Shown one piece after another: positions 1,778 through 35,008 of a stretch of 64,000 nucleotides of DNA. Numbering within the stretch: the first letter of the stretch is position 1; every line of letters begins with the position of its first letter. The position numbers and the translations under genes were made by a program. The notes beneath the pieces are model-generated. The model searched no databases and was not told where the DNA came from. It saw nothing but the letters and a program-made list of their open reading frames with translations. Source of the stretch: Bdellovibrionales bacterium. GTDB taxonomy: Bacteria; Bdellovibrionota; Bdellovibrionia; Bdellovibrionales; JAGQZY01. The stretch covers positions 34,991 through 98,990 of the forward strand of contig JANOYW010000080.1 in assembly GCA_031429075.1 (NCBI GenBank), given 5' to 3'.

Positions 1778-2935
1778 ATGGAACGAGAGTTAAGCGTCAG
1801 TCCTACTTTAAATAACGACAAGTACTGTCCTCTTTTCTGGAACAGCCTTGCATTGAACGCCACGGGGGCCATTAAGCCCTGTTGTCGATTTATGGAGGAT
1901 CCGCCAGCACCTCAAAGTTTAAAGCCAGGAGATTTAGAAGCGGCCCTCCATAGCTCCAGTTTTATCGCCGCGAGGCAGGCTGTTTCTGAGGGGCTCAAAG
2001 TCTTAGCTTGCAAGCGCTGTCACAACGAAGAAAGCTCCGGCATCCGAAGTCTCCGTCAAACACGGCTAAATCCAAAAGCCAAAACTTTTCATGGTCTAGA
2101 AACCTCTTTGCAGCAAATTGAATTTGTAGAAATTTTTCTAGGTCGAGAGTGCAATCTGGCGTGTCACTCTTGCAAGCCATCCCTGAGCACAAGATGGGGA
2201 GCCGAGTTCAAAAAAATGGGTTTACCTCTTGAGACCTACAAATCCTTTGATTATGAGGAATTAAATCTTTCAAGTTTTGAGTCTTTAAAAGAAGTAAAAT
2301 TTGTTGGTGGGGAAACGTTTATCAATGACCAGCATTTAAAAGTTTTAGCAACGATTCCCATAGAGCAGCGAAGAAATTTAAACATCGAATATTACACCAA
2401 TGCCACCAGACCCATTCCTCAAACATGGTTTGATTTTTGGAGTGACTTTAAGAGAGTCACTATTAGGTTTAGCATCGATGGTTACGGCGCTCTCAATGAA
2501 TACATTCGGTATCCAAGCCAGTGGTCGGTCATTCAGGAGAACATTAACAACGCAGTTTCAAAAAAAAGAGAAAAGATAGAGTTTAGAGTTCAAACGACGG
2601 TGAGCGTGTATAACGTATTTAAATATAAAGAAATTGTGAATTGGTGGGAGCAGGTCATTTCCACTGCGACAAATAGTATACAACCAGTGAAGTTAAATTT
2701 ATTAGATGAGCCTTCATTTATGTCACTGCCTGTTTTGAAGTTAGCTCCAAAATTGTTGGAAACGATAGAGATGCCAGCTGAATGGCTCCGTTTTATCAAA
2801 AATGCCGAGGCAAACCCTGCTCAGGTTGAAAGATTGAAAAACTACACGGAGTCTCTTGATAAACATCGGCAACTGCAGGTGGGCAGGTTTGTTCCCGAGC
2901 TCCTCGACTTATTTTCTGAAGCTAAGGTGATGTGA
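1778..2935 (+). CDS. Radical SAM protein with N-terminal twitch domain (subfamily A)
   Basis: YCPLFW..G.IKPCC...CKRC, then ECNLACHSC, VGGE, FSIDG..NEYIRYPS.W. Confidence 0.9.
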   Translation: MERELSVSPTLNNDKYCPLFWNSLALNATGAIKPCCRFMEDPPAPQSLKPGDLEAALHSSSFIAARQAVSEGLKVLACKRCHNEESSGIRSLRQTRLNPKAKTFHGLETSLQQIEFVEIFLGRECNLACHSCKPSLSTRWGAEFKKMGLPLETYKSFDYEELNLSSFESLKEVKFVGGETFINDQHLKVLATIPIEQRRNLNIEYYTNATRPIPQTWFDFWSDFKRVTIRFSIDGYGALNEYIRYPSQWSVIQENINNAVSKKREKIEFRVQTTVSVYNVFKYKEIVNWWEQVISTATNSIQPVKLNLLDEPSFMSLPVLKLAPKLLETIEMPAEWLRFIKNAEANPAQVERLKNYTESLDKHRQLQVGRFVPELLDLFSEAKVM

Positions 2936-3041
2936 GGCGGGCTGCGCAGAGTCAAAATTGATGGTCAATTTGATGAATTGCGTCGATTATTTCTAAGTTT
3001 AAGTCGGTGGAAAATCATGTAGAGTTTGTTGGGGAGCTCGA

Positions 3042-4322
3042 ATGGAAAACCAGGGTGAATTTGTAGCAATGAAATTTAAATCCAATTTTGTAGGCGCTAC
3101 AAGTGTGGACTGGTATGTCGGAAAGCGCTGTAACTTTGACTGTAGCTACTGCGTGGACTACCTGCACGACAGCACTTCGCCACATGTACCACTAGCAAAT
3201 ATGAAGAAGTTTGTGGATTTTGTGCACGAAAAAAGTGGTGCGAACGTTTTGTGGAGCCTCACTGGTGGCGAGCCAACGCTGAACCCAGACTTCGAGAGCA
3301 TTTGTGAATATATTCGCGTGAAAGGTTCCTCGAATATTAGCATCACAACAAACGGATCTAGAACCGCAAAATACTATGTACAGCTTTTTGAACACCTTGA
3401 TCATATTACTTTGAGTCTTCATTTTGAACATATCGCGCCGAAAAGTTTGTCTTACGTCGAAAAAGTTATTCAAATCGAAAACTGGCGAAAAAAATGGAAC
3501 GAAGAGAATCGAGCAAACTTCAAAAAAGGTCTCGCCCGTAAAAAAACTTTTTTAGTTCGTTTTATGGTCTATCCAGGACTTTTTGAAATGATTGAAGAGA
3601 TGAAGGCGCGCTTTCAAGAGGCTAGTGTTGAGCGCGTTGAATATAGATACATCAGGCCGCTGTCGGGTGGAGCCAACGAACAAATGCCAAGCAAACGGCT
3701 TGAGTTTGCGCAGAATCATGATACCGAAAAAAATCTTTCTCGAATCCATCGGATAGGTAGCGAAATAAAAACGCGAATTACAAAACACTATTTACAATTA
3801 AAATATAAAAAGTTTGATCCTAAGGAAACGCCCCAGGACACGCTTTCTTCAAAGGATCGGCTGGCGATTAAAGACATCGTCGCTCGGGAAGAAAATTGGT
3901 ATTCCGATGGTGAGAAAAAGAAGCTGGATGAGTATTTTTCGGAAGATAACGAAAAAAAACTAATGCTTTTTTTCGAAAAAGAGGGAGAAGTTCAGCCTTC
4001 GGATTATCACTACAATAAACTTAATTTTGAGCGAAAGTCGAATTTTGAGGGATGGTTGTGTTGGGCTGGAATTAAACATATGAAAATCGCCCCTAATGGG
4101 GACATTTACGTTGGTTCATGCCACGTTGGTGGCAAGCGGGGAAATATTTACGAGATAGAGAAAGGCATTGATATGCCAGCGGAGCCATTGCGCTGTCCAA
4201 AGTGGCGCTGTACGGATCATTTGGATTTACGCGTTCCCAAAATTAAAGATTGGAAATACTACAAGCATGTTGAAATAGCCGTGGGAGGGGCGGAGAGATC
4301 CGCACAAAATCAAAATGTCTAA
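3042..4322 (+). CDS. Radical SAM protein with C-terminal SPASM/twitch-like domain (subfamily C)
   Basis: WYVGKRCNFDCSYC, TGGEP, TTNGS; C-terminal FEGWLCWAG..G.I...C..CPKWRC; GGGGAG RBS. Confidence 0.9.
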   Translation: MENQGEFVAMKFKSNFVGATSVDWYVGKRCNFDCSYCVDYLHDSTSPHVPLANMKKFVDFVHEKSGANVLWSLTGGEPTLNPDFESICEYIRVKGSSNISITTNGSRTAKYYVQLFEHLDHITLSLHFEHIAPKSLSYVEKVIQIENWRKKWNEENRANFKKGLARKKTFLVRFMVYPGLFEMIEEMKARFQEASVERVEYRYIRPLSGGANEQMPSKRLEFAQNHDTEKNLSRIHRIGSEIKTRITKHYLQLKYKKFDPKETPQDTLSSKDRLAIKDIVAREENWYSDGEKKKLDEYFSEDNEKKLMLFFEKEGEVQPSDYHYNKLNFERKSNFEGWLCWAGIKHMKIAPNGDIYVGSCHVGGKRGNIYEIEKGIDMPAEPLRCPKWRCTDHLDLRVPKIKDWKYYKHVEIAVGGAERSAQNQNV

Positions 4323-5748
4323 AAAATCAGTTTTTTGCGTAGCTCCCTTTGTTGCACTAAACACTCGCGGACATGGGAACATTCGTGTTTGCTGCTCTAT
4401 TTTAAAAACAGATCGTGGAATTCCAAAAGAAATGACAGTTGACGATAATAATAAAGCCTACGATGAGCGCCAAAGCGATTTTATCTACAACGGCAGTTAC
4501 TACAACTTAACTTTGGACTCCTTTGAAGAAATTTGGAACAGTCCGTTTTATAAAGATATGCGAAAAAAAATGGTCGTCGGAGAGCCGATTTCGAACTGTG
4601 CGTACTGCTACGACATGGAAAAGAATGGTCTTTGGAGCAAACGAATGGGCAGAAATTTGCATTTTTTGGGAAATCCAGAGGGTGACTACGAAACAAACCC
4701 ATCGCCAGAGCCACTTCATCAAAAAACCAGCCAACTCATTCGCAACTGCATTCAATCAGAATACGTGGCCACAGAGACTCCACAGTGGTTGGAACTGCGG
4801 TTTTCAACAATCTGCAATTTGCGCTGTGTGATGTGCTCACCGTCGTTGAGTACTTCGCTTTACGAAGAGTACGACAGCAACCAAAGTTTGTTAAGCGATC
4901 GACAAAAAGGATCTTTAAAAATCGCCAGTAAAATTGCAGAGACAGGGCAGGTTCGGGATTCTGATTTTTTTATGCAGGAAATCAGAAAGATCTCAACCAA
5001 AGGCTTATTTTTTGAGTTTCGCGGTGGCGAAATCTTACAAGATAAAAAAATGTTAAAATTTATGGAAGAGCTTTCGACCGAGGAGCGCGCGCCACAGATG
5101 ATGCTGGATATTACCACCAACGGTATCGGTCTGAACCAAGATCACATAAAGATTTTGAGTCGGTTTAAAGGTGGTAAACTCAAAATCAGTGTCGATGCCT
5201 TTGAGCGAGAAAATGAACTGATTCGGTATCCTTCAAAATGGAAGATGACCGTGAATGCTTTAAAGCAATTTAAAGGCTTACACAAAGGTTGGGTACCCTA
5301 CGTGCAACCGACCTTGAGTGCCTTTCAGGCACCAACAATTGACAGACTCTTGTTATTCTTAGAGAAATTTTCCTTAGAAGAAGGCATCGATCTTCGAGTC
5401 AACGTAACTAAAGTGCGCGGCTTTGAGCACTTGATGTTGAACCTTGTTCCTCTTGAGGATCGTGTCGCAGCGGCCGAGAGTGCCATGGCCATCGCGCAGA
5501 AATCGTTTCTTTGTGCACCAGATGCTATTTATGGAAACAAAAATCGCGAAAGTATTATTGGGCTAAGTCAGGCTCTCAGAGAACCGCAAATAAAAGATGC
5601 TAAAAGTCTTCGTAATCTTTTCGCGCACGTGGACAGCCTTTCGGCGATACGCAAAATCAATTACTACGACACTTTTCCACACTTAGCTCGTATGAAAAAA
5701 GAATTCGAAGAAATACTTTTGCAGGAGCAAGATAGTGCAAGATACTGA
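4315..5748 (+). CDS. Radical SAM protein with N-terminal twitch domain (subfamily A)
   Basis: FCVAPF..RVCC...CAYC, then ICNLRCVMC, RGGE, ISVDA..NELIRYPSKW. Confidence 0.9.
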   Translation: MSKKSVFCVAPFVALNTRGHGNIRVCCSILKTDRGIPKEMTVDDNNKAYDERQSDFIYNGSYYNLTLDSFEEIWNSPFYKDMRKKMVVGEPISNCAYCYDMEKNGLWSKRMGRNLHFLGNPEGDYETNPSPEPLHQKTSQLIRNCIQSEYVATETPQWLELRFSTICNLRCVMCSPSLSTSLYEEYDSNQSLLSDRQKGSLKIASKIAETGQVRDSDFFMQEIRKISTKGLFFEFRGGEILQDKKMLKFMEELSTEERAPQMMLDITTNGIGLNQDHIKILSRFKGGKLKISVDAFERENELIRYPSKWKMTVNALKQFKGLHKGWVPYVQPTLSAFQAPTIDRLLLFLEKFSLEEGIDLRVNVTKVRGFEHLMLNLVPLEDRVAAAESAMAIAQKSFLCAPDAIYGNKNRESIIGLSQALREPQIKDAKSLRNLFAHVDSLSAIRKINYYDTFPHLARMKKEFEEILLQEQDSARY

Positions 5749-6397
5749 ACTTCTAGAGAGCGAGAAAACCCACTTTCTTTTGCCTAACTTTCCACAAGAG
5801 TTCATTCTAAAGGGACGAGAGCTTTGGAAAGAAATTCAAGCACTGGATGTAAATGGACCGGGAAGCCACGAAGTTCCAAAAATGATTCCGCTCAATGGCA
5901 GTCCGCATTTTTTTGTTCGTCGAGCCTCCAGAACGTTTATCATGTACAAAATTACTGGGCCGCAAAAAAGAATTTTTCAAGTTATCGATGAAGACGATTC
6001 CGTTGAATTTTATGTGGGTCTTGCCGAAAAATATGTAGCCGATCCGCACCTGGATCGAGGTCGAAGACTGTGTGCAATTAATCTACCCATCGACGTGAAC
6101 TACGCTGAAAGTTTTTTTATGATAGGGAAGTACTTCGACCATTGTAAATACCGAGAGAAGCCAGTGGCCGATTCCCCGTATCAATTTCAACTCGACAATT
6201 CCGATGATCCAGGTGGTAAATTTTATTACGACAAAGAACATTTCGAGCAATATAGCATGGAGACGCCAGTTCTCTTCAGCGCGAAAACTCCTCACGGGGG
6301 TAGAAGTTGGGCAAAAACACCACGTGTAGTAATGAGCATCGGGTTTGCGCAACCCCTCAGCGTGATACAACGTAAACTACCCAAAGAGTGGTTTTAA
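5735..6397 (+). CDS. Putative 2OG-Fe(II) oxygenase / cupin-fold protein
   Basis: PHLD (HxD) ... AINLPI ... PVLFSAKTPHGG ... RVVMSIGF gives an HxD...H triad plus distal Arg; overlaps both neighbours. Confidence 0.6.
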   Translation: MQDTELLESEKTHFLLPNFPQEFILKGRELWKEIQALDVNGPGSHEVPKMIPLNGSPHFFVRRASRTFIMYKITGPQKRIFQVIDEDDSVEFYVGLAEKYVADPHLDRGRRLCAINLPIDVNYAESFFMIGKYFDHCKYREKPVADSPYQFQLDNSDDPGGKFYYDKEHFEQYSMETPVLFSAKTPHGGRSWAKTPRVVMSIGFAQPLSVIQRKLPKEWF

Positions 6398-7650
6398 TGT
6401 CGTTAAATGATGCAAAAATCACATCGACAACTTATTGCGTAAATTTGTTTTACCAATTAGGTACCAAAGTTGATGGAAGTTTTCGCCCCTGTTGTAATTA
6501 TTCAGGTCCAATTATGGATAAAGATGGGCAACCCGTGCATGCATCGACCCATTCCATCCAGGAGTATTTTAACTCCGAGGGTATGAAAGCGCTGCAAAAC
6601 AAATCTCTAAATAGTGAAAAAGTACCGGGGTGCGAGAGTTGTTACCACTATGAAGCGAATACGGGGCAGTCCAAGCGCGTAAGGGACAACATTAAATTTC
6701 AAGAAGCTACCGCCAACGAAAATCCTTCAGAGGGCGGTAAAATTAAAATTCTTGATTTGCGAATGGGGAATCTTTGTAATTTGGGCTGTGTCTCCTGCCA
6801 ACCATTGCTATCTTCAAAATTAGAAAAATTGTGGGGAGAACACGGTGCCGACAAATTTTCGGATAAAAGTGTAGCCGCCCAAATACCCGCCAAACATCGT
6901 TCGTGGTACAAGAGTAGTCAATTCGTTGATGAAATTGGTGAGAACAGTCATGGCATAGTGTCCCTCGCATTGGTCGGCGGAGAACCGTTGATCAATCCGT
7001 ATAATATCGCGCTGCTTAAAAAGCTCAGCCACCTTGGAAAAAAGCTTAAGCTTTCGGTCACCTCGAATATCTTTTCTGTTCCCGAGGATGTGCTGGAGCT
7101 GCTTAAAGTATTCAATACAACAATTGATTGCTCTCTTGATGGCATCGGTCCCATGATTGAATACATACGTTACCCGGTGAAGTTTGATGATGTGGTAAAT
7201 AATTACAAGCGTATTTGCGAAGTGGGGATCTCAACACGAATCATATGTACGATTTCGGTTCTCAATCTATTTCATATCGCAGAAAGTTATGAATTTTACC
7301 ATCAATTGAACAAGAATTTTGGGCGAAAGCTAAAAATGTCGGTGGGTAATCTTGTGTTGAAACCTGAGCACTTAGCAATTAGACATCTCCCCGAGGCTTA
7401 TAAACAGAGGGCCATCCAGCAGTTAACAGATTTTTATGGGACGCTCTCGAGAGATCATCACGAAGACACCATTAGAGGAAGTACGCGGAACCTCATCAGC
7501 TATCTACAGAACTCTAAAGGCGATATTAAGAAGATTCGCGATAAATGGAAATTCATCGAAAACTATGATCAAATCAGAGGAAATTCTTGGCAAAAAGTTG
7601 CTCCTCACCTGCAAGGAATCTTAGATGCTCAGCCTGAACTCAGCATTTAA
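6397..7650 (+). CDS. Radical SAM protein with N-terminal twitch domain (subfamily A)
   Basis: YCVNLF..FRPCC...CESC, then LCNLGCVSC, VGGEP; ATG overlaps the upstream TAA (TAATG). Confidence 0.9.
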   Translation: MSLNDAKITSTTYCVNLFYQLGTKVDGSFRPCCNYSGPIMDKDGQPVHASTHSIQEYFNSEGMKALQNKSLNSEKVPGCESCYHYEANTGQSKRVRDNIKFQEATANENPSEGGKIKILDLRMGNLCNLGCVSCQPLLSSKLEKLWGEHGADKFSDKSVAAQIPAKHRSWYKSSQFVDEIGENSHGIVSLALVGGEPLINPYNIALLKKLSHLGKKLKLSVTSNIFSVPEDVLELLKVFNTTIDCSLDGIGPMIEYIRYPVKFDDVVNNYKRICEVGISTRIICTISVLNLFHIAESYEFYHQLNKNFGRKLKMSVGNLVLKPEHLAIRHLPEAYKQRAIQQLTDFYGTLSRDHHEDTIRGSTRNLISYLQNSKGDIKKIRDKWKFIENYDQIRGNSWQKVAPHLQGILDAQPELSI

Positions 7651-8932
7651 ATTTCTTACCAAAGAATTGCGTTTCATTGCAAGACGTCGCTGGCGAAAAC
7701 GTCAGCTGAACAATACATTTTGCATTAATTTTTTCTCCCAGGCATCGACTAAGACAAATGGTCTGTTTCGCCCATGTTGTCATTTTGTGGGAGTGATCAA
7801 GGATGAAAATGAGAAGCCGTTCCATGCCGCAACCCATTCTATTAAGGATTACTTTTTTTCCAATGCCTTGAAAGAAATTCGGCGCAAAGCCTTAAACAAA
7901 GAGGCAATTAAAGGCTGTGAGAATTGCTACGAAATAGAAAAAGCAACTCAGCAGTCAAAAAGAGTCCGAGATAATGATCGGTATCATGAAATTTGGAAAG
8001 AGATCCGAAAAAAACCGGAGCGAGCAGAAATTAAAATGTTAGATTTACGGCTGGGAAATGACTGCAATTTAGGATGCGTTAGCTGTATTCCGGCTTTGTC
8101 ATCAAAATTAGAGCAGCTTTGGGATAAGCATGGCGCAATTCATTTTACTGACGACCCAATGCTCACCAAACCTGTGAAACCCAAAGAGGTATCGATTCCG
8201 TGGTACAACCAAATAAACCTGGTTGAGCAAATTAATGAATTACAAAATGATCTTTCCTATTTGGCCTACGTCGGCGGAGAGCCACTCATTAATGATACAA
8301 ATTTTGACATTTTGGAAAGTCTTGAAGGTAAGGGTAAGAAATTAAATTTACATGTCACCTCCAACCTCATGGCTCTTACCGATGAAAAATTACGCACGTT
8401 AGAAAAATTTAACACCCAAATCAACTGCTCCCTGGATGGGGTGAATGAAACCATCGAGTACATTCGTTTTCCAGCCAAGTTTTGGGTCATCGAAAAAAAC
8501 CTTAGAAAAATCCTAAATTCGTCGGTGAACGTGCAGATTATTTTCACGGTTTCTGTGCTCAATATTTTTCATATCGTTGAAGCCTATCGAGTGTATCGAA
8601 AAATCCACGATGACTGCGGGCGGGGTCTCAATTTAACGGTCGGCAACTTTGTTATCAAGCCAGGCCATCTTGCCGTTAAAAATCTCCCAAAAGAGCTTAA
8701 GCAACAAGCCCTCACCCAACTTGAGCCGTTGTATTATGAAATCAAGCGCGACGAAACACAGGCGGTGTTCAGTGCCAGCTTGCTCAGTCTTATTAAGTAT
8801 CTCCATAACACCGAGGGCGATGTTGACATCATCAAAAGCGGCTGGCGATTTGTGAAAAAATACGATGAAATTCGAGGAAATAATTGGAAAGAGTGTGCTC
8901 CATGGATGGGAGAAGTTCTCAATGAACTCTAG
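7625..8932 (+). CDS. Radical SAM protein with N-terminal twitch domain (subfamily A); tandem paralog of 6397-7650
   Basis: FCINFF..FRPCC...CENC, then DCNLGCVSC, VGGEP; collinear similarity to the upstream gene. Confidence 0.9.
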   Translation: MLSLNSAFKFLTKELRFIARRRWRKRQLNNTFCINFFSQASTKTNGLFRPCCHFVGVIKDENEKPFHAATHSIKDYFFSNALKEIRRKALNKEAIKGCENCYEIEKATQQSKRVRDNDRYHEIWKEIRKKPERAEIKMLDLRLGNDCNLGCVSCIPALSSKLEQLWDKHGAIHFTDDPMLTKPVKPKEVSIPWYNQINLVEQINELQNDLSYLAYVGGEPLINDTNFDILESLEGKGKKLNLHVTSNLMALTDEKLRTLEKFNTQINCSLDGVNETIEYIRFPAKFWVIEKNLRKILNSSVNVQIIFTVSVLNIFHIVEAYRVYRKIHDDCGRGLNLTVGNFVIKPGHLAVKNLPKELKQQALTQLEPLYYEIKRDETQAVFSASLLSLIKYLHNTEGDVDIIKSGWRFVKKYDEIRGNNWKECAPWMGEVLNEL

Positions 8933-10052: not shown

Positions 10053-10053
10053 T

Positions 10054-12926: not shown

Positions 12927-13007
12927 GGTCTCACTCTATGGGAAATACTTGTCGACTCTTTACACACTCATTTATAATATGTACTTTTGGAAATAAAAAG
13001 GGAATTG

Positions 13008-17167: not shown

Positions 17168-17209
17168 AAGGTATGCTAAATTAAACAATTATAGATTAGG
17201 CAGCAATTT

Positions 17210-22172: not shown

Positions 22173-22190
22173 CCCAAAGGTAGTGCTACT

Positions 22191-24433: not shown

Positions 24434-24437
24434 AAAT

Positions 24438-25454: not shown

Positions 25455-25476
25455 GGAGTCTCCAATACTTAGATCG

Positions 25477-26622: not shown

Positions 26623-26712
26623 AGATCTCCTATGGTGTTCCTTGAGCGAATTACTCTCTGCGTCTATTTCGCCAGGATTGAATAATTTTTACCCATTGGT
26701 ATAGATAAAACA

Positions 26713-27858
26713 ATGGCAAATTACTGGTCTTCCTACGACTTCACACAAATACCCTTCCAAGATATCGAATCAGTGGGTCAAAGAACCCTTCTGCATCGCG
26801 ATCTGTTCTGCGTAAGTTGGTTGCTAGGCCGTTTTTGCAATTACCGCTGTTCTTATTGTTGGCCCTACGCTCGATCGGACAAAAAGGATCATCGCTCCAC
26901 GGAGCTTGTCTTAAAAACGTTAGCCGAAATAAAGCGCCAAGCGCGCGAGAGAAATTTTAATTCGTTTCATTTTTCGTTTAGCGGTGGCGAGCCGACCATG
27001 CACCCAGGGTATTTGGAGATTTTGAAAACTTATTCTGAGGATCAAAAAAATTGCAATTATCAATCGCTGCATATGACGAGCAATGTGAGTGCGGGTTTAG
27101 GTTGGTTTAAAAAATACGTCGAAACGACCAAAGACATCAATCGTGTGAGTGTGACCGCAAGTTATCACAAAGAGTTTACAACAAAAGAACCGTTTGCGGA
27201 AAAACTCGTTTTTCTGCAAGAAAACGACATTAATGTCACCATCAATATGGTGATGGTGCCAGAGCGCTTTGAACTTCTTTGGGAGGAAGCTCTTTATTTT
27301 CACGAGCAAGGAATTAACGTCACTCTCAAGCCACAAAGCAACCCGACGGCAACTGCTGTGGTTCAGGGTTATACGGACGAGATGCTCAAGCGGTTGCGCA
27401 ACGGGATGCCGCAAAGAGATTATACAGCAAAGCGCTTAGAGACCAATTCCAAGTCTTCCCTTCGGCCAAAAGCATGCTTTGCGCCTTATCCAGAGAAAGA
27501 TGCTTCGGGAGAAGAAATTCCACAAATTATGCAGGTGGAGCTCAACGACAACAAAGGTCAAAAATTTTTTATGGATCAAGCCGAGCGCTTTAACGCCTTC
27601 AATTTTAACCAATTTAAGGGGTGGGAGTGCAGCGCCGGTTACCGCAGCATTATTATCCGTGAGCCCGATGGAGCGATTAAAAGAAGTTACAGTTGTAATG
27701 ATAAACCTCTCGGTTATCTGGAAACCGGCTTTGAATTGTTTCCAAAGGCCATGCCATGTATCACTCAGAGTTGCGTAAGCAGTGCGGATAGCAAAATCCC
27801 CAAACGCAAAGCGGGCACTCAGTGGCCGCTTTGGCCCGGAGACACTGCGAGTGTATAA
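26713..27858 (+). CDS. Radical SAM protein, subfamily C
   Basis: WLLGRFCNYRCSYC, SGGEP; C-terminal FKGWECSAG..SC..PCITQSC. Confidence 0.9.
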   Translation: MANYWSSYDFTQIPFQDIESVGQRTLLHRDLFCVSWLLGRFCNYRCSYCWPYARSDKKDHRSTELVLKTLAEIKRQARERNFNSFHFSFSGGEPTMHPGYLEILKTYSEDQKNCNYQSLHMTSNVSAGLGWFKKYVETTKDINRVSVTASYHKEFTTKEPFAEKLVFLQENDINVTINMVMVPERFELLWEEALYFHEQGINVTLKPQSNPTATAVVQGYTDEMLKRLRNGMPQRDYTAKRLETNSKSSLRPKACFAPYPEKDASGEEIPQIMQVELNDNKGQKFFMDQAERFNAFNFNQFKGWECSAGYRSIIIREPDGAIKRSYSCNDKPLGYLETGFELFPKAMPCITQSCVSSADSKIPKRKAGTQWPLWPGDTASV

Positions 27859-28924
27859 GGCACGAGAAATCAAGGTCGTGCATTTAGAAATCACAACTAA
27901 GTGCAATGCTTCATGTCCCATGTGTTTACGTAATGTCTGTGGAGGGCAAGTGAACCCCCAGCTTCCGCTGGCAGAACTTTCCCTTTTTGATATCGAAAAA
28001 ATATTTCCGGTCAATTTTGTTCAGCAATTGGAACGGATTCTTTATTGCGGAAATTACGGAGACCCTGTGGCGGCAAAAGACACTTTGGATTCGCTCAAGT
28101 ATTTTAAAAATGCAAATCCACGTCTTCAGATATCACTGTTTTCCAATGCGTCAGCCCGACCGGCTGGGTGGTGGCAAGAGGTCGCAACGTTAACGACGGA
28201 TGTTCACTTTGCAATCGATGGCTTGGCTGATACGAATGCTTTGTATCGCCGGGGAACACAATTTGACGTAATCATGAGGAATGCAAAGGCATTTATTGAT
28301 GCTGGCGGAAGAGCCGTTTGGGACTACATTGTGTTCAAGCACAATGAACATCAAATTGAAGAAGCACAATCGTTAGCGCGAAAAATGGGCTTTTATAAAT
28401 TCAATTTAAAAAAAACCGGCCGTTTTTTTAGCAATACCAAATCGGAAGTCAAAACACAGCAGGCTGTCTTGGGCACGGACGGGCAACTTGAATATTATTT
28501 AGAAATGCCGGTAAATACAAAATACCACAATGGGGCCCTGGCCAAAGAAGAAGCTCTTGTGCAAAAATACGGTCATCTCGAAAAATATTTAGATCAGACC
28601 CAAGTCGAATGTAAAGTCGCCGCTGAAAAAAGCGTTTACGTGTCTGCCGAAGGATTTGTTTTTCCTTGCTGCTGGACGGCCAACCAACTCTATCCCTGGT
28701 ATTTGAAACCGCGCTCGTCTCAGCTGTGGAAGCTCATCGAGGCTCTTCCTGATAACGAAAGCTCCATTTCAGCCAAAAACCACAGTCTTGATTCCATTGT
28801 AGAAGGTGATTTTTTCGAAAGCATAGAGAGGAGTTGGGGGCTGGCCTCGACAAAGCTCGGAAAACTCAAGCCCTGTGCTAAAACCTGTGGAAAAGAGTTT
28901 GATCCATTTCGTGCTCAATGGTGA
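27851..28924 (+). CDS. Radical SAM protein, subfamily B
   Basis: HLEITTKCNASCPMCLR, CGNYGDP, FAIDGLADTNALYR, WDYIVFKHNEHQ, PCCW, CAKTCG; GTG start 27851 with GGAG RBS. Confidence 0.9.
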   Translation: MYKAREIKVVHLEITTKCNASCPMCLRNVCGGQVNPQLPLAELSLFDIEKIFPVNFVQQLERILYCGNYGDPVAAKDTLDSLKYFKNANPRLQISLFSNASARPAGWWQEVATLTTDVHFAIDGLADTNALYRRGTQFDVIMRNAKAFIDAGGRAVWDYIVFKHNEHQIEEAQSLARKMGFYKFNLKKTGRFFSNTKSEVKTQQAVLGTDGQLEYYLEMPVNTKYHNGALAKEEALVQKYGHLEKYLDQTQVECKVAAEKSVYVSAEGFVFPCCWTANQLYPWYLKPRSSQLWKLIEALPDNESSISAKNHSLDSIVEGDFFESIERSWGLASTKLGKLKPCAKTCGKEFDPFRAQW

Positions 28925-30102
28925 GCAAATTGAAAATTAAAATTGCGCTCTCTTTCGCTTCGATACTAATATCTCCGGTGGTCATTTTTTCTGCTCTAGA
29001 GTGCATGGCTCGATGGTCTGAACTGCCTCAATTTTTAAATTTTCAAACCGATTCAAAACCTGTAAATTGTAGTAACGCCACGAAGAGTTCCTACCGACTC
29101 TCAGTGGACTTCAGTCATCAGCAAAAGACAAAATACTTGAGCGAAGAGATTACCTATAAAAAACTAGTAAAAAACTACGACTATATTTATACTAACGAGC
29201 TCGGTTATCCGGTCCATAAAGAAAATCAAAATTTCCAACAACGCGCAACGGTTATCGAAACGGGAGAAACTGCCTACGATGTTAAGTACAGCTTTGATGA
29301 GAGGGGACGTCGTAAAGTTCCAGGAGCGGATAAAATTTTTGCCAATTCGCATTTAGCCATTAGTGGGTGCTCCGTTGTTTTTGGAGAAGGACTTGAAGAT
29401 GAGCAAACCCTACCGGCACAACTCCAAAAAAAGGTTCAAAAAACTAAAGTATATAATTTGGGCCGCGCAGGCGGATCTGTAGTGGATGCGATCTCAACGA
29501 TGCAAGTAACCAATTTGTGGAAGGATATCGATCCCAAAGAAGGAGCTCTGCTTTTCTTTCATTCCTCGCAAACTCATGTGCCTCGGTTTCTTGGCACCAT
29601 CTCGACGGTGGGAGTGTGGAATAATTACGGTGCTTTTTTAAACGAAGAGGCTGCCACGGGAGCGTTCCAGTATGGCGGCGTTTACGACAGAAACAGACCA
29701 ATTTGGACCTTGTTGAGTCGTTGGGCAACGAGATCTCAGTTCTTAAAAAGAATAAATTTTGATTGGCCACCAACTACAAATTCTGCACTTGAAGCTTATG
29801 TGCGAGCCTTGAGTTTTTTACAGCAGCAGTACCAGCTAATCACAGACGCCAAAAATCCAATGGTGGTCTATTTTCGCCCCGGCGAAAAGGATTCGTGCAA
29901 GATCATACCTTATCTCGAAAAATATAAAATTTATTATTTGGACTATTCCGATTTTGAAATGAAACGCTACGCAACACGGCCGCTAAAAATCCAATATGAC
30001 GCTCACCCTACTGAAGAATTTAATCGAATTCTTTCGCAGCAATTAATGCACGATTTGACCTTCCACGAAAACACCCAAAAAATTCAACGTACATTTTTTT
30101 AA
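28918..30102 (+). CDS. Membrane-anchored SGNH/GDSL-like hydrolase/transferase
   Basis: N-terminal TM helix, GCSVVFGEG block I, YNLG block II, DAHP block V. Confidence 0.75.
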   Translation: MVSKLKIKIALSFASILISPVVIFSALECMARWSELPQFLNFQTDSKPVNCSNATKSSYRLSVDFSHQQKTKYLSEEITYKKLVKNYDYIYTNELGYPVHKENQNFQQRATVIETGETAYDVKYSFDERGRRKVPGADKIFANSHLAISGCSVVFGEGLEDEQTLPAQLQKKVQKTKVYNLGRAGGSVVDAISTMQVTNLWKDIDPKEGALLFFHSSQTHVPRFLGTISTVGVWNNYGAFLNEEAATGAFQYGGVYDRNRPIWTLLSRWATRSQFLKRINFDWPPTTNSALEAYVRALSFLQQQYQLITDAKNPMVVYFRPGEKDSCKIIPYLEKYKIYYLDYSDFEMKRYATRPLKIQYDAHPTEEFNRILSQQLMHDLTFHENTQKIQRTFF

Positions 30103-30105
30103 AAA

Positions 30106-31263
30106 TTATATTCCATTTAGCCTTTTTTTATTTTCAGCAAGCTTGAGATCACATGTCATCTGTTCCGCAAGCAATCGATTGTATTCAGCGGTTGGGTGCC
30201 CATCGCCCGGTATAAAAATTTCGGTTTGGGCATACTTCGATAATGAAAAATCCGTATAATCCAGATAGTGAATTTTGTATTTTTCAAGATATGGAATGAG
30301 ATGGTTCCATTTTTTCTGAGGTTCAAAATAAACAACAAATTGATTTTTATTTCCGTAGAGCTTTAGGTAGTTTTCTTTAACCTGAAGAATTGCTTTTGCA
30401 TAGTTTTCAAGGGTAACATTGGTGACTCTAGGCCAGTCGAAACCTATCAGCTTAAAAAGTTTCGACTGAACAAATAAATTTGAAAAATGTACGTACCAGC
30501 GCTGATGTTTGCTATACACACCGCCAAAAGAATATTTATCTGTCGATATATCATAGTTCAAGTAAGCGCGATGCCCCCCGTGCTGGCCTATGCTAGATAG
30601 TGTTCCAAGGAATCTACGCATATGCATGGAGTAAGAGAAGTTGAATAATACGAGCCCTTCTTTGGGCTCGATACCATCCCACATCTTGGTTTTTTCTTGC
30701 GACGCAATAACATCGGCCACGGACCACCCCGGTAGGCCGATCGTGTACGAGTGAGATTCTGGGTTTTTGACCTGCAGAAAAGTTGCTAAAGTTTCGTGGT
30801 CAGGTAGTCCCATTCCAAAGACAAAAGAGCATCCAATAACAATTGTATGTCTTTTGGGCCGTTCTGAGGTTTTGGGCGTAGTTCTTCTACCATTGTCGTC
30901 TATTTGGTAGGTCATATCGAAAACAGTCTGCCCTGTTTGTGGGATTATGAATTGCTGATAGCCTTTAAAACTAGGCATGGCAAGCCACAGACCGCTTTCG
31001 TCTTCTCTGTAGAAGTCGGAGCGTATTTCCATGTCTGCTATAAATAATTCGGGCTGTTTGAAGCTTTTTAAGGGCAAACATTTTTTGCTTCTCACGAGCC
31101 TATATTGGGAGGTTGGGGGAAGGGAGAGTCTTTGTAAGTCAGAAAACGGCAAGGGAAATTTTTGGTCGCTAAAGTAAAAACGCACAGCAAATTCGGCACA
31201 AAAGAAAATGATAATCAGCATGATTAGGGCGATACAACTTCCTGTAATACTTTTTTTAATCAT
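30106..31263 (-). CDS. Membrane-anchored SGNH/GDSL-like protein, paralog of 28918-30102
   Basis: N-terminal TM helix, GCSFVFGMG, DGHP; shares WxxIxPKEG, RFLGT, FDWP and IPYLEKYKIxYLDY with its convergent neighbour. Confidence 0.75.
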   Translation of the reverse strand: MIKKSITGSCIALIMLIIIFFCAEFAVRFYFSDQKFPLPFSDLQRLSLPPTSQYRLVRSKKCLPLKSFKQPELFIADMEIRSDFYREDESGLWLAMPSFKGYQQFIIPQTGQTVFDMTYQIDDNGRRTTPKTSERPKRHTIVIGCSFVFGMGLPDHETLATFLQVKNPESHSYTIGLPGWSVADVIASQEKTKMWDGIEPKEGLVLFNFSYSMHMRRFLGTLSSIGQHGGHRAYLNYDISTDKYSFGGVYSKHQRWYVHFSNLFVQSKLFKLIGFDWPRVTNVTLENYAKAILQVKENYLKLYGNKNQFVVYFEPQKKWNHLIPYLEKYKIHYLDYTDFSLSKYAQTEIFIPGDGHPTAEYNRLLAEQMTCDLKLAENKKRLNGI

Positions 31264-31275
31264 ATAATAATTTTT

Positions 31276-31425
31276 TTAAAAAATTGTATAGATAAACGGC
31301 GAGGCCACAGTCCCGCTACCCAAATAAAGAAGTGCAGATAGAGTCAGGAGTATCAAAAAAAAGGGGATCATCCACCATTTTTTATTTTCGATCGCAAACT
31401 GCCAAAGTTCAATAATAATTCTCAT
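31276..31425 (-). CDS. DUF5989 / SxtK-like small membrane protein (49 aa; not in ORF track)
   Basis: Hand translation MRIIIELWQFAIENKKWWMIPFFLILLTLSALLYLGSGTVASPFIYTIF; KKWW and PFIYTxF signature; ATGA overlap with the carbamoyltransferase stop. Confidence 0.88.
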   Translation of the reverse strand: MRIIIELWQFAIENKKWWMIPFFLILLTLSALLYLGSGTVASPFIYTIF

Positions 31426-33236
31426 GTATTTTCCTTAGTTATTATTATCTTATGCAGATTTTTTTGCTTTTCCAAGACGTAATTTCCAAGAACAAGGAAA
31501 TCGAGATCAGTTTTTAAAAAGCACAGTATGGCGTCGCGAGGATGATCTACGATAGGTTCTCCTCGAACATTAAAGCTCGTATTTACAAGCATAGGCACGT
31601 TCGTATGTTGATCGAACATTTTTAAAAGCTTGTGAAGCAATGGGTTTTGTTCGTGGGTGACAGTCTGTAGGCGTGCGCTGTAGTCCAGATGGGTGACGGC
31701 GGGCACCGTCGAACGGGTCGTATTTAATCTCTCTTGGGAGGTTGAAAAAGCCTGTGCTTGTAATCGATGGACTTTTAACAAATCGGCAACAAACAGCATG
31801 TAAGGACTGTCTGATGGGCAATTTTCAAACCACTCGTGGGCTTTTTCCGCCATTACAATTGGCGCAAAAGGACGGAACGATTCGCGAAATTTAATTTTTA
31901 AATTGAGTTTCGACTGCATAGTCGCGCAGCGAGCATCAGCAAGGATCGAACGCGATCCCAAAGCACGAGGGCCATATTCTGATCGCCCCTGAAACCATCC
32001 CACGGCATCCCCTTGGATCAATGAGTGACAGGTTTTTTCTAAAAGTAGGCTCTCATCACAAAGCTCATAAACGACACCCATTTCGTCGAGACATCTTTGG
32101 ATTTCATTATCGTCGTAAGCGGAACCCAAATAGGAATAAGACATAGTGTCTTTGTTCTGAAGTTTGTAGCGCGGTTGTTTAAAATGCAAAGAGTGGGCGG
32201 CGAGCGCGGCGCCCAGGGCGCTGCCAGCATCTCCAGAGGCTGGCTGAATCCAAATGTTTTTAAAACGGCCATCGCGAAAAATTTGACTGTTGCTCACACA
32301 GTTGAGCGCCACACCGCCAGATAAACAAAGAGCTGGGATGGAGTATTCTTTAAACAACGCACGCGTTAACTGAATCATCAGATGATTGAGTACGGCTTGC
32401 GTCGAAGCCGCAATATCCATGTAAACCGGTTCTATGAAAGATTCGGGGCTTCGCGGCGGCACGGCAAACAGTTTGCTGAGCTCTTCGGTAAACATTTTCT
32501 GCGTGGATGAAAAATCAAAATATTTAAGGTTGAGTTGAAAAGAGCCATCATCTTCGATGCGAATGAGATTATCTAAGATCGTGGCAAAGAAGCGTGGCGT
32601 TCCATAAGGAGCAAGCCCCATCAATTTGTATTCACCAGAATTTACTTTAAATCCACAAAATGTCGTGAGGGTGGAATAAAAAAGTCCCAACGAGTGGGGA
32701 AAATGAATCTCCTTTTGCAGCTCAATTTGATTTTCGTTGCCAATGGAAACTGTGGACGTGGCCCATTCGCCAAGGCCGTCCAAGGTAAGAATCAAAGCCT
32801 TTGAAAAAGGCGATGGAAAAAAGGCACTGGCAGCATGACTCAGGTGATGTTTGGAAAATAGTAGTTTTGCTTCGTTAAACCGAGGGTCAATACGACGAAG
32901 TTCCTTAAGAAGGTCACTTTGCATAAAAAGAGTTTTGGTGAATGTTTCGGAAAAACTATCAACAAAGGCGACGGGGTTCCATGGAGCGTCCTTTAAGTAG
33001 CTTTCGATTTGTCGATCGAGTTTTAATAAGGGTTTTTCATAAAAGACAATAGCATCGAGCTCGCGAAGTTCCATTTTGGCATAGGAAAGGGCCGCTAAAA
33101 CGGCATGATGGGGAAAACGGGAATCGTTTTTTAGCCGCGAAAAGCGTTCCTCCTGCGCCGCAAACACTGGCTTACCACCGACCACAAGAGCGGCAGCACT
33201 GTCATGAAAATAACAAGAGATTCCTAAGATTTTCAT
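31422..33236 (-). CDS. O-carbamoyltransferase (NodU/CmcH/SxtI family)
   Basis: ILGISCYFHDS, QEERFSR.K, HHLSHAASAF, DGLGE, EYKLMGLAPYG, GGVALNC, EYGPRALGSRS, RESFRPFAP, NTSFN; start set at ATG 33236. Confidence 0.95.
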   Translation of the reverse strand: MKILGISCYFHDSAAALVVGGKPVFAAQEERFSRLKNDSRFPHHAVLAALSYAKMELRELDAIVFYEKPLLKLDRQIESYLKDAPWNPVAFVDSFSETFTKTLFMQSDLLKELRRIDPRFNEAKLLFSKHHLSHAASAFFPSPFSKALILTLDGLGEWATSTVSIGNENQIELQKEIHFPHSLGLFYSTLTTFCGFKVNSGEYKLMGLAPYGTPRFFATILDNLIRIEDDGSFQLNLKYFDFSSTQKMFTEELSKLFAVPPRSPESFIEPVYMDIAASTQAVLNHLMIQLTRALFKEYSIPALCLSGGVALNCVSNSQIFRDGRFKNIWIQPASGDAGSALGAALAAHSLHFKQPRYKLQNKDTMSYSYLGSAYDDNEIQRCLDEMGVVYELCDESLLLEKTCHSLIQGDAVGWFQGRSEYGPRALGSRSILADARCATMQSKLNLKIKFRESFRPFAPIVMAEKAHEWFENCPSDSPYMLFVADLLKVHRLQAQAFSTSQERLNTTRSTVPAVTHLDYSARLQTVTHEQNPLLHKLLKMFDQHTNVPMLVNTSFNVRGEPIVDHPRDAILCFLKTDLDFLVLGNYVLEKQKNLHKIIITKENT

Positions 33237-33243
33237 GCGCCCT

Positions 33244-33606
33244 CTAAAACATTCGATCAAACCGTTGATTGTTCCTAGGCTTTTGCCATCCGCGGCTTGG
33301 TGTTTTAGCTCTTACCAGACGCAAACCCAAGGACAGGGGAGAAACAAGCAGAAAATAAAAAATGATTAAAAAAATGGGTTGTAGCAACCAAGCCAAACAA
33401 ATACCTACATAAAACCAAAGTGTGTTTAAAATGGATAAGTAACGTCTTAAAAAAAAGGCAGGCACAAGTAGCAACGAAGTCAGGGACCATGGAGGTGAGA
33501 TAAAACAAAATGCGCTCATCAAAAGAAAAACAAGAAATAAAGAAAAACTTTTAAGTGAGGGACGAACCGACTGTTCAAGTCGAACGAAATCAGATCGAGT
33601 CCACAT
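33244..33606 (-). CDS. SxtJ-like membrane protein
   Basis: 2-3 TM helices, W...G..L.....P.FL...YF..V.P pattern, C-terminal FDRMF; directly upstream of the carbamoyltransferase. Confidence 0.65.
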   Translation of the reverse strand: MWTRSDFVRLEQSVRPSLKSFSLFLVFLLMSAFCFISPPWSLTSLLLVPAFFLRRYLSILNTLWFYVGICLAWLLQPIFLIIFYFLLVSPLSLGLRLVRAKTPSRGWQKPRNNQRFDRMF

Positions 33607-35008
33607 AATCGTCTAATTTATGAAGCGGGGTTTCTGGCGTTAGAAGCTCTGACATCTCCGGAAACGTTTTTGTAAATGAGGTTCCTCGAATGGAATCCAT
33701 GTGCGTAATATATTCCCGAAACTGCGGCATGCGATTTGACCAATCCTCAGACTCCATAAATTTCAGCATTCCTTCGAGTCTTTTAATGCCATAAGGATTA
33801 TTTAAAAACTCTTCATCGTTGCGATGATTTTTTAACAACCACGAATAGAAAGATTCGTATTTGCAGCGAATTTTCTGTTTAAAATTTTTAGGAAAAACTT
33901 TTACGTTTAAATGCGCAGGGTGATAAACAAAATGATAATTAATCAAGCCTGCACCCAAGGGCCACGCATTTATTTTTTTGTAATTCTGCTTAAGCTTCCA
34001 GCGGATAAAATCCGGAATATAAAACATGTTTAGCATTTGTACGGCACAGGCAATGGTCACTTCCACGTGATTTGGTGTATCGTCCAGAAGTCGTAGGTGC
34101 TTTTCGATGGTCTCCCACTTTGCGGGATAACGAATGTACGAATTCATTTCTCCAATGCTGTCGATACTAAAATGAAAACGGACACGGCGAAACTTTTCCC
34201 AAAGTGCGAACAACCTGTCGGGAAGCTCAATCCCGTTACTGTTGTAGCGGAGTTCGATATTTTTTGCATAGCCCCTGCGCACACACTCTTCGAGAAGTTC
34301 GTAGTGTTCTTCGATGATAGTGCTTTCGCCACCGGCAAAATAAAGTTGCTGCATGTGGGGAATTTGCTCGTACAGTTGTTCCCAAAACGCGGGATTGTCT
34401 TTGTGCCAGTCGTAACTCGCACCATCGACTTGTCCATTGTTATCCCAAATCATAACCTGTTTCAGTTCGGCGTTTTGGATTTTAGGGTAGAGTTTCTTCC
34501 AGTCCGAAACCCAAAGCGAACTGTCGTGCGGTGAGCACATAACACATTTTAAATTACATTTTGTACCTAATCGTAAATCCACATAATAAACGCGCGGAGG
34601 GACGGAACCATCTGTTGCGGTTTCATCAATTAACTTTTGCAAATCAATTCGCGAGCTCCAATACTCAGTTTCCCAATTCCGTTTTGAGCGATGCCCGGCA
34701 GCTTCTTCCTTAAAACACTTCGTGCAGGACGATGGAATTTCGCCAGCTAGCATCTTCTGTCGCACATCGCGCATATAGCCGTTATTCCAGCCTTCCAGCA
34801 GCGGGGTATGATTTAGATTGGCAGGCTTGCCATTGTCGTTTTTTAAAATGCCCACTTCGCCACCCCAAATTTTGTCGTTTGTCGCTCCGGCCGAAGAAGC
34901 ATTGGCCGTGCAACACACCCGCATGTGTCCATTGGGACGTGTCGAAAGGTGAATCCACGGAAGCGCACAGTAAGTTGAACTAGGGGGTTGAAAAGAATTC
35001 TGAGCCAT
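33590..35008 (-). CDS. Radical SAM protein with N-terminal twitch domain (subfamily A)
   Basis: YCALPW..NGHMRVCC...CTKC, then KCNLKCVMC, AGGES, YNSNG, FSIDS..NSYIRYPAKW; start set at ATG 35008. Confidence 0.92.
   Translation of the reverse strand: MAQNSFQPPSSTYCALPWIHLSTRPNGHMRVCCTANASSAGATNDKIWGGEVGILKNDNGKPANLNHTPLLEGWNNGYMRDVRQKMLAGEIPSSCTKCFKEEAAGHRSKRNWETEYWSSRIDLQKLIDETATDGSVPPRVYYVDLRLGTKCNLKCVMCSPHDSSLWVSDWKKLYPKIQNAELKQVMIWDNNGQVDGASYDWHKDNPAFWEQLYEQIPHMQQLYFAGGESTIIEEHYELLEECVRRGYAKNIELRYNSNGIELPDRLFALWEKFRRVRFHFSIDSIGEMNSYIRYPAKWETIEKHLRLLDDTPNHVEVTIACAVQMLNMFYIPDFIRWKLKQNYKKINAWPLGAGLINYHFVYHPAHLNVKVFPKNFKQKIRCKYESFYSWLLKNHRNDEEFLNNPYGIKRLEGMLKFMESEDWSNRMPQFREYITHMDSIRGTSFTKTFPEMSELLTPETPLHKLDDYVDSI

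Follow-up and report, generated by a model that had tools for sequence, protein, structure and literature searches.

Radical SAM Island of a Bdellovibrionales Bacterium

A 64,000-nucleotide window of the genome of a Bdellovibrionales bacterium (contig JANOYW010000080.1 of assembly GCA_031429075.1, positions 34,991 to 98,990) contained, between 1.8 and 36.5 kb, an island of 29 open reading frames (ORFs), of which 16 were radical S-adenosylmethionine (SAM) genes. These genes fell into three designs, namely eight twitch-first enzymes of the N_Twi_rSAM family (hereafter N_Twi), and five type B and three type C enzymes with a C-terminal four-Cys motif. The informative part was the picture at the level of the locus: three designs, a core shared with phages, and a hypervariable island at a fixed chromosomal site across genera. 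A sequence-only reading of the same DNA had described the eight twitch-first paralogs and had overlooked the other eight radical SAM genes as well as the kinship to phages and the hypervariable character of the island. The reading favored here, to which a probability of about 40% is given, is that the N_Twi enzymes carry out radical C–H tailoring of a sugar-based, surface-exposed structure.

Family Membership and Conserved Motifs

Eight of the island ORFs exceeded the curated cut-off (170 bits) of the NCBIfam profile NF033640 (N_Twi_rSAM), with near full-length matches from profile positions 1–2 to 396–397 of 398. They were NTwi1 (1778–2935, +; 257.4 bits, 385 amino acids (aa)), NTwi2 (4315–5748, +; 239.3 bits, 477 aa), NTwi3 (6388–7650, +; 288.5 bits), NTwi4 (7625–8932, +; 279.7 bits), NTwi5 (11721–12926, −; 300.0 bits), NTwi6 (20862–22172, +; 396.2 bits), NTwi7 (25477–26622, −; 261.3 bits) and NTwi8 (33590–35044, −; 432.4 bits). 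All were intact, in agreement with the eight paralogs claimed from the letters alone, and the N-terminal twitch family named on that occasion exists and includes every one of them. The ORF of NTwi8, previously placed up to 35008, was confirmed but extends to 35044 through a TTG start, 35008 being an in-frame ATG 12 codons downstream. The source genome held 11 members of NF033640 (eight in the window and three on contig C73), compared with no match over the cut-off in 14 control genomes, which excludes chance for the family matches. By profile, the eight proteins are additional members of a known family without any functionally tested member; no paper on N_Twi_rSAM, NF033640 or an N-terminal twitch family, and none on radical SAM arrays in Bdellovibrio, was found in the full-text literature.

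In the alignment of the eight copies, numbered after the first of them, C17, G30, C35, C36, C78, C81, E85, S91 and R93 were invariant, giving a common N-terminal motif C-x12-G-x4-CC ... CxxC...E...S-x-R ahead of the CxxxCxxC. The core columns C125-N126-x2-C129-x2-C132, G177-G178-E179, N208, S232-x-D234, R244 and P246 were likewise invariant. Because C17, C35, C36, C78 and C81 precede C125, C129 and C132, the Cys-rich domain lies ahead of the radical SAM core. All eight conserved the segments noticed earlier, namely the Cys motif near the N terminus, CxxxCxxC, GGE and S(I/L/V)D...R(Y/F)P, and the reported GGE variants were found as described (VGGET in NTwi1, RGGEI in NTwi2 and AGGES in NTwi8), the other five copies having GGEP. 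Across 93 aligned sequences of the wider family (numbering of the NTwi5 protein), C35, C74 and C77 were present in 93/93 and C36 in 92/93, while C17 occurred in 78/78 rows with a residue at that position, 15 further rows being gapped. The concern that the N-terminal Cys might not be conserved was thus contradicted in the eight copies and across the wider family alike. Five N-terminal Cys were conserved and no additional invariant Cys was seen in the N_Twi alignments, which corresponds to a twitch-type count.

The Pfam SPASM profile (PF13186) scored above its gathering score of 21.5 on the N-terminal stretch of three copies (22.2, 23.4 and 24.3 bits), at residues 8–98 of NTwi2, 17–78 of NTwi5 and 5–68 of NTwi7; the other five gave no Pfam SPASM match at E ≤ 0.001. 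In the available text of PMC9012708, SPASM/twitch domains are described as C-terminal extensions, about four auxiliary Cys are counted for a twitch domain versus seven or eight for a full SPASM domain, and the known SPASM/twitch enzymes are put at roughly 165,000. The same text has the twitch domain, built of a β-hairpin and a subsequent helix, binding one auxiliary cluster, through four Cys in BtrN and three in MoaA. To judge from the alignments and the model described below, a single auxiliary [4Fe-4S] cluster is expected in the twitch-like domain (C-x12-G-x4-CC ... CxxC) that opens the N_Twi proteins.

Three Radical SAM Designs and Domain Relationships

The five type B enzymes had CN(A/L)xC(P/L)xC, four invariant C-terminal Cys (C283, C302, C372 and C376) and CG..GDP in place of GGE. 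They were B1 (8865–10052, +; CNLRCPQC, a PF04055 match and a C-terminal twitch/SPASM-like domain with SPASM residues 283–372), B2 (10635–11744, +; PF04055), B3 (23351–24433, +; PF04055), B4 (24438–25454, −; PF04055, SPASM residues 242–328) and B5 (27782–28924, +). The three type C enzymes had CNxxCSYC, GGEP and the invariant C-terminal C306, C328, C349 and C354; they comprised C1 (3042–4322, +; PF04055 52 bits), with an N-terminal CNFDCSYC and the C-terminal four-Cys twitch-like motif, C2 (22191–23354, +; PF04055 54.6 bits) and C3 (26713–27858, +). By alignment, each of the 16 enzymes has one putative auxiliary motif of four to five Cys, ahead of the core in eight and behind it in eight.

A profile of the N_Twi N-terminal domain gave a weak hhalign match to the C-terminal domain of type B (E 8e-4, probability 24%) and no match to type C. 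Against PDB sequences, the sole match of the N-terminal domain profile was the SPASM region of SuiB, at a non-significant E of 0.98. The SPASM matches and the type B alignment would weakly fit a twitch/SPASM module that was relocated.

The AlphaFold2 model of NTwi5, built with 93 aligned sequences, had a predicted local distance difference test score (pLDDT) of 94.8 and a predicted template modeling score (pTM) of 0.91. It placed a β-hairpin with helices (about residues 19–93; strands 23–26 and 31–32, helices 49–93) ahead of a β/α core, with a C-terminal domain of helices after it. A Foldseek search of the PDB recovered generic radical SAM cores only, the best being SkfB (E 1.8e-7, template modeling (TM) score 0.40), followed by GDGT-MAS, viperin, BlsE, CteB, DesII, anSME and MoaA. 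No solved structure in this search or in the wide VIA search was a specific N_Twi relative, both returning generic cores. Compared with canonical C-terminal SPASM/twitch enzymes (anSME, SkfB, CteB, SuiB, MoaA, BlsE and viperin-type cores), identity was ≤19% and the query-normalized TM score ≤0.40; their domain order is the reverse of that of N_Twi, and no recognition element (RRE) of RiPPs, the peptides made by the ribosome and modified after translation, was detected in N_Twi.

Age of the Paralogs

Pairwise identity among the eight copies was 20–46%, with a median of 25%. A FastTree phylogeny was computed for 208 N_Twi proteins from the window and contig C73 and from 73 genome and 35 viral loci, near-identical rows having been removed beforehand (288 to 208); its supports are local and it contains long branches. 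NTwi3 and NTwi4 formed the sole sister pair (46–48% identity, support 100). The clade of NTwi8 (support 100) comprised 17 rows, 11 of them from phages; that of NTwi5 (support 99) comprised 36, with 18 from phages and 17 from cells; and that of NTwi2 (support 100) comprised five, of which four were from phages. NTwi6 belonged to a 12-row clade (10 cell rows, one phage row), itself nested in a larger clade of 55 rows, 30 of them from cells and 23 from phages. NTwi1 had one close ortholog, 54% identical and located in locus L026, and NTwi7 had no supported clade. NTwi8 was 80–90% identical to its orthologs in congeners and 56–61% to those in phages, but only 24–37% to its neighbors. From the tree and these identities, the paralogs are old and ortholog-specific, with at least four placed in supported clades common to uncultured T4-like giant phages.

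Redundancy after recent duplication, or decay of copies that have no function of their own, is an extremely improbable account of the eight genes. The NTwi3/NTwi4 pair does represent a local tandem duplication, and one congener (G004) carries an apparently split N_Twi copy (244 + 156 aa). However, all eight copies of the window retain every catalytic motif, they share 20–46% identity with only one sister pair, distinct supported clades exist among them, and NTwi8 is far closer to congener and phage orthologs than to the copies beside it. The earlier suggestion that each copy has a distinct, position-specific role fits three results: the copies are each conserved with their own orthologs, the set is swapped between congeners, and N_Twi–N_Twi fusions occur naturally.

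Hypervariable Island at a Fixed Chromosomal Site

The flanks of the island in the window were chromosomal, with TadA, YqeY, DnaG, RpoD, tRNA-Met, an E1-type dehydrogenase and L13. Three congeners had the island at the same site, between M16 peptidase/methyltransferase genes and TadA–DnaG, and the flanks were 85–97% identical (95% for congener DnaG) while the left part of the island was replaced. In G004, flank proteins were 95–97% identical and the left-hand N_Twi genes only 25–33%, so that they represent other paralogs. G002 retained the NeuB block together with NTwi6, C2 and B3, and G003 had a different block of NeuB, cytidylyltransferase and GFO/IDH/MocA genes. The right-hand core persisted across the three congeners and comprised C3, the best-conserved island gene (81–92%), B5 (69–81%), the carbamoyltransferase gene (31422–33260, −; 59–76%), orf120 (33244–33606, −; 26–61%), NTwi8 (80–90%) and unk457 (35081–36454, +; 42–47%).

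The same site was used beyond the genus. In G007, from another genus, a 13-gene N_Twi array again adjoined TadA–YqeY–DnaG–RpoD, and G016 and G019 kept the core order of an NTwi6-type gene, C3, B5, NTwi8, one ORF and unk457. The guanine–cytosine (GC) content was 0.40–0.44 in the island versus 0.45–0.48 in the flanks. With the same site, conserved flanks and differing gene content, the locus is a replacement-type flexible genomic island. Islands of this type encode surface-exposed structures. Like O-antigen-like replacement islands, it shows a fixed site, conserved flanks, wholesale replacement of content and a lower GC content; in contrast to them, family scans recognized neither a classical glycosyltransferase nor Wzx/Wzy or an ABC exporter, and radical SAM genes made up 16 of the 29 ORFs.

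Some minor features were seen at these loci. The split N_Twi gene of G004 (L112; G004:C15, 1959–3090) is an extra gene lying between unk457 and TadA and may be broken. A phage-type integrase and a helix-turn-helix protein at the edge of the N_Twi array of G016 (L119, 16754–18131), and an ISL3 transposase at the array edge of G024 (L124, 16349–17638), are possible agents of island turnover.

Kinship with T4-Like Giant Phages

A scan of IMG/VR yielded 35 loci on contigs of ≤330 kb, and tblastn with the window genes revealed the same cassette in phage loci. Among the radical SAM enzymes, identities were highest for C3 (61–68%), NTwi8 (56–61%) and B2 (about 55%), followed by C1 (40–51%), NTwi6 (40–48%), B1 (mostly 40–45%), B5 (mostly 35–46%), NTwi5 (33–38%) and NTwi2 (about 35%). 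Accompanying genes were also found, with the compact SDR-like protein (10039–10635, +) at 44–49%, unk457 at 36–41% and unk220 (5735–6397, +) at 28–36%. The records behind L085 (330 kb and 93% complete according to CheckV), L079, L017 and L057 contained a T4-type Gp23 capsid gene, while none was found in the 50%-complete record of L074. Loci L017, L057, L061 and L063 came from bins of Dojkabacteria, Chloroflexota, Polynucleobacter and Acidimicrobiaceae, yet genes of T4-like phages were present on them (gp15, a phage lysozyme, RNase H and Gp23, or a set of heme oxygenase, bilin reductase, CsgF and CsgG), and they are probably mis-binned myophage contigs. L057 had 11 consecutive radical SAM genes.

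Among GenBank phages, only Vibrio phages of about 250 kb had a relative, at 25% identity, and only generic "radical SAM" families of PHROGs matched the radical SAM proteins. In the accessible part of PMC5332604, a T4-like genome from the environment, 183 kb in length, is reported to have 12 radical SAM genes. In pelagimyophages, according to the accessible part of PMC7029224, radical SAM cassettes lie in a hypervariable host-recognition cluster beside tail fibers, glycosyltransferases and lipopolysaccharide genes. These marine cassettes likewise array many radical SAM genes in hypervariable regions, and neither the N_Twi family nor a function is named in the portions of the two papers available (PMC7029224, PMC5332604); unlike them, the array described here is chromosomal and interleaved with sugar-activating and membrane genes.

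Putative Function: Radical Tailoring of a Sugar-Based Surface Structure

The favored reading of surface-sugar tailoring draws on the company that the N_Twi genes keep. The island encodes a NeuB-family ulosonic acid synthase-like protein (16265–17188, −; PF03102 145.2 bits), a CMP-sugar (ulosonic/nonulosonic acid) cytidylyltransferase-like protein of the CTP_transf_3 family (14344–15009, −; PF02348 86.8 bits), a NodU/NolO-type carbamoyltransferase (PF02543 291.6 bits, PF16861 225.8 bits, phrog_1601 354 bits), an LPG_synthase_TM domain, further membrane proteins and SGNH-like proteins. A GH114 lipoprotein adjoins it, and the island is replaced at a fixed site and has a lower GC content; for all these reasons a sugar-based surface structure would be the likeliest substrate. 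The NeuB-like and cytidylyltransferase-like proteins are clearly of the ulosonic-acid kind at the level of Pfam families (145 and 87 bits), but scored below the nonulosonic equivalog cut-offs, with 127.3 bits for NeuB_NnaB (cut-off 399.65), 100.7 for PseI (340.25) and 106.5 for PseF, TIGR03584 (205.7). Sugar genes beside N_Twi genes also occurred elsewhere, including a GT1-type, a pyruvyl transferase, an epimerase and a SIS gene in L063, an ABC-2 exporter and an FkbM methyltransferase in L049, a UDP-glucose dehydrogenase in L105, a Glyco_trans_1_3 gene in G024 and a UDPGP-like gene in G007.

According to the mechanism proposed, the N_Twi proteins would act with the eight other radical SAM enzymes, a cupin oxygenase, the SDR, a methyltransferase-like protein and the carbamoyltransferase. 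Each enzyme would cleave SAM to a 5′-deoxyadenosyl radical, which would abstract one specific C–H hydrogen from the sugar-based surface structure, the substrate being either a sugar (ulosonic or other) linked to a nucleotide or lipid, or a finished glycan or glycolipid. The auxiliary cluster would accept an electron, as proposed for BtrN, leaving a keto or otherwise oxidized position, which the SDR and the carbamoyl-, methyl- and acyl-handling enzymes may process afterwards, and the paralog set of a strain would decide the final structure. Such a radical oxidation is suggested by the gene context and by the four-Cys twitch motif, which recalls BtrN. BtrN, the 2-deoxy-scyllo-inosamine dehydrogenase of the butirosin pathway (PDB 4M7T), has a single four-Cys auxiliary [4Fe-4S] cluster in its twitch domain and performs a two-electron oxidation of a sugar-like alcohol, as given in the available text of PMC9012708. 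The number of conserved auxiliary Cys in N_Twi matches that of BtrN, but the twitch domain of BtrN follows the core whereas that of N_Twi precedes it, and BtrN was absent from the rows listed by both structure searches, no specific sequence kinship being found. The Cys spacing of N_Twi may also resemble that of BtrN.

Several results weigh against a simple glycan pathway. Glycosyltransferase families of the GT-A and GT-B folds, Wzx/Wzy and exporter families were found in none of the proteins scanned (28 from the island, 122 from phage flanks and 52 from congener islands). In five well-assembled genomes of the same family, GT1, GT2, carbamoyltransferase or NeuB genes lay within 15 kb of 9/30 N_Twi loci (13/75 genes), against about 6.5 loci expected by chance, so that classical glycosyltransferases showed no enrichment around the arrays, and the largest N_Twi arrays of these relatives had no such genes within that distance. 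The 93%-complete, 330-kb phage had no NeuB and only a distant CTP_transf_3 gene, and the C73 locus had no sugar genes except one with a SIS domain at a distance of about 2.3 kb. An obligatory partnership with NeuB was rejected, since NeuB is missing from that phage, from the G004 island and from the large-array neighborhoods in relatives. Moreover, the recurrent partners were generic (Asp/Asn-hydroxylase cupins, QueC-like PP-loop proteins, nitroreductases, B12 radical SAM proteins, aminotransferases, GNATs and AMP-binding proteins) and would suit other substrates equally well.

One such substrate would be a protein or peptide, with the enzymes cross-linking, epimerizing or oxidizing residues of, for example, fiber or adhesin proteins or an unrecognized ribosomal precursor. 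Most characterized SPASM enzymes act on peptides (available text of PMC9012708), the top matches of profiles to PDB sequences included TigE (8vpo), SkfB and CteB, and protein-modifier families (Asp_Arg_Hydrox, SET, ATE_C and GNAT) occurred in the phage flanks; TPR repeats in some N_Twi fusions and the position of phage cassettes near tail-fiber genes (accessible part of PMC7029224) point the same way. This substrate is nonetheless rather unlikely. A PqqD/RRE domain was found by Pfam (E ≤ 0.001) in 0/16 radical SAM proteins, which only lowers the probability of a peptide substrate as RREs can escape Pfam. No candidate precursor was seen in gaps of 22–370 bp, where the sole plausible small ORF (64 aa, 1495–1689) is lysine-rich, orf120 being a membrane protein, and Pfam and NCBIfam detected no peptidase or RiPP-type exporter in the island. 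The four or five auxiliary Cys, sufficient for one cluster, are also as in the small-molecule enzymes BtrN and MoaA.

Membrane lipids or lipid A, whose acyl or isoprenoid chains would undergo C–C or C–H chemistry of the GDGT-MAS/Tes kind, with LpxO/OlsC-type hydroxylases acting alongside, are distinctly unlikely targets. GDGT-MAS (7tol/7tom) was among the best structure and sequence matches, but it matched no better than viperin, BlsE or SkfB. Cupins of the Asp_Arg_Hydrox type, a family to which LpxO and OlsC presumably belong, recur beside the arrays, and the island has the LPG_synthase_TM domain and the SGNH-like proteins; however, no acyltransferase, acyl carrier protein or lipid A gene was recognized in it by Pfam or NCBIfam. 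Fatty-acid desaturases, which are common auxiliary genes of marine phages, were present in the phage flanks but outside the cassette.

A role on nucleotides or nucleic acids, whether viperin-, MoaA- or QueE-like conversion, hypermodification of phage DNA, or defense and counter-defense, appears very improbable. Matches to such enzymes were confined to the first, cluster-binding part of the core and fell far below curated cut-offs: the best viperin_w_prok (NF038283) score was that of C1, at 54.5 bits over 107 residues versus a cut-off of 180, and N_Twi proteins had ≤21 bits or no match. PADLOC matches to pVip were partial, spanning about 100–150 of 257 profile positions. A known defense system was rejected as a candidate, PADLOC having given only these partial matches to the pVip core. 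In addition, the island has no nuclease, kinase, glycosylase or DNA-handling gene, its radical SAM genes are interleaved with membrane and sugar-activating genes, and it is chromosomal in bacteria with a position that is stable across genera.

Replacement of the island between near-identical congeners, and a core common to giant phages, suggest a product under strong selection and specific to the strain, with the cell or virion surface as its most probable location. Rather tentatively, the three designs with the cupin oxygenase, SDR and methyltransferase-like protein may form a mobile, combinatorial "radical editing" toolkit, exchanged between giant T4-like phages and predatory Bdellovibrionota, that diversifies a surface structure for recognition of, or hiding from, hosts, prey and phages. 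The core (C3, B5, NTwi8, usually an NTwi6-type enzyme, and unk457) would then make or prime the scaffold, and each exchangeable N_Twi copy would alter a single position through C–H chemistry not yet described for glycans. A radically edited glycan, if real, would represent a new class of glycan-tailoring chemistry and a new link between the host-recognition regions of phages and bacterial predators. C3, B5, NTwi8 and NTwi5 are concrete proteins for biochemistry.

Distribution, Second Locus and Fusions

N_Twi_rSAM is a very large family with reversed domain order, which now has a clear bacterial setting. With proteins clustered at 50% identity, 7,292 cluster representatives matched a profile of the eight copies at E ≤ 1e-30. 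Genomes of the same bacterial family had N_Twi genes in 21 of 24 cases, with 1 to 24 matches each, compared with 3 of 16 genomes from other families of the order. The earlier description of the N-terminal twitch family as mostly from uncultured aquatic organisms was too vague: in the collections searched here, its members came chiefly from Bdellovibrionota and from T4-like giant phages. One locus, L040, belonged to the record of a named Bdellovibrio sp. isolate. The loci were collected with an alignment of NTwi5 relatives and are hence biased toward NTwi5-type neighborhoods. The nearest named records to the source-genome proteins were metagenome-assembled genomes of Bdellovibrionales and Pseudobdellovibrionaceae. 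Near-unchanged DNA was present in runs of two freshwater/other sediment studies, one of which may be the source; none of the runs listed was of RNA.

The second locus of the source genome, on contig C73 (L109; G000:C73, 8784–14030), contained three N_Twi genes and a fourth gene with an N-terminal SPASM match and a radical SAM core that scored below the NF033640 cut-off. It was flanked by SelO, ferritin, YecM/DUF4269 and photolyase genes. Fused proteins that join two or three N_Twi modules in 770–1,413 aa also exist (among P0126–P0213). The 18 long fusions scanned had a SPASM-rSAM-SPASM-rSAM order, with TPR repeats between or before the modules in 2/18; their partners were only N_Twi and TPR, none naming a substrate. 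These natural fusions suggest that different N_Twi modules may work side by side.

Other Genes of the Island and Window

The predicted cupin oxygenase mentioned above is unk220, a 2-oxoglutarate/Fe(II)-oxygenase-like protein with an HxD...H motif, in which H105-x-D107 ... H187 was invariant across seven homologs. It had no Pfam or NCBIfam match, including NCBIfam at E 0.1, and hhalign linked it to Asp_Arg_Hydrox-type proteins of related loci (probability 82.5%, E 1e-5). The compact SDR-like oxidoreductase (198 aa) gave weak NCBIfam SDR matches (E 1.6e-4) and had 37 homologs in related phage and bacterial loci. The nearest ESM Atlas clusters of unk457, a phage-type protein with a methyltransferase-like C-terminal part, were 91–100% viral (score 0.97).

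By sequence comparison, mem459 (12987–14366, +), mem466 (19339–20739, −) and mem742 (17210–19438, +) are three paralogous polytopic membrane proteins. The first had no Pfam family match, but it matched mem466 by BLASTP at E 3e-6 and is also related to the N-terminal half of mem742, itself 22% identical to mem466 (E 3e-11). The C-terminal half of mem742 is the LPG_synthase_TM (flippase-like) domain (PF03706 43.4 bits, residues 489–634). Possibly GT-C-like, mem466 had ESM Atlas feature neighbors that include PMT and DUF6020 clusters (score 0.98), a lead only; it had one homolog besides itself and no match in PDB sequences. Between the cytidylyltransferase and the NeuB-like gene lay unk439 (15006–16325, −), a near-orphan with a single homolog besides itself among 5.8 billion proteins and no match in a PDB sequence search. 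A glycosyltransferase assignment for it was rejected, the AlphaFold2 model being poor (pLDDT 54) and the Foldseek rows, mostly GT-B, reaching TM scores of only 0.13–0.18.

The membrane-anchored SGNH-like protein sgnhA (28918–30102, +), with a weak NF047474 match, and its paralog sgnhB (30106–31263, −) were 40% identical, and the small membrane protein orf120, recognized from its translation, was kept beside the carbamoyltransferase. NCBIfam at E 0.1 gave no match for orf120, orf115, the 64-aa ORF, unk457, unk439 or the three membrane proteins. This 64-aa lysine-rich ORF (1495–1689, −) is a candidate gene without a family match in the 370-bp gap upstream of NTwi1. The GH114 glycoside hydrolase lipoprotein (36910–37830, −), with a proline-rich linker, directly adjoins the island; it occurred in G002 at 74% identity, and none was found at the same place in G004 or G003. 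Elsewhere in the window were a 276-aa leucine-rich-repeat protein (43312–44142, +) and a 973-aa protein with a DUF7932 domain (60004–62925, −), both unrelated to the island, and an IS200-like Y1 transposase (58184–58663, −; PF01797 31.7 bits).

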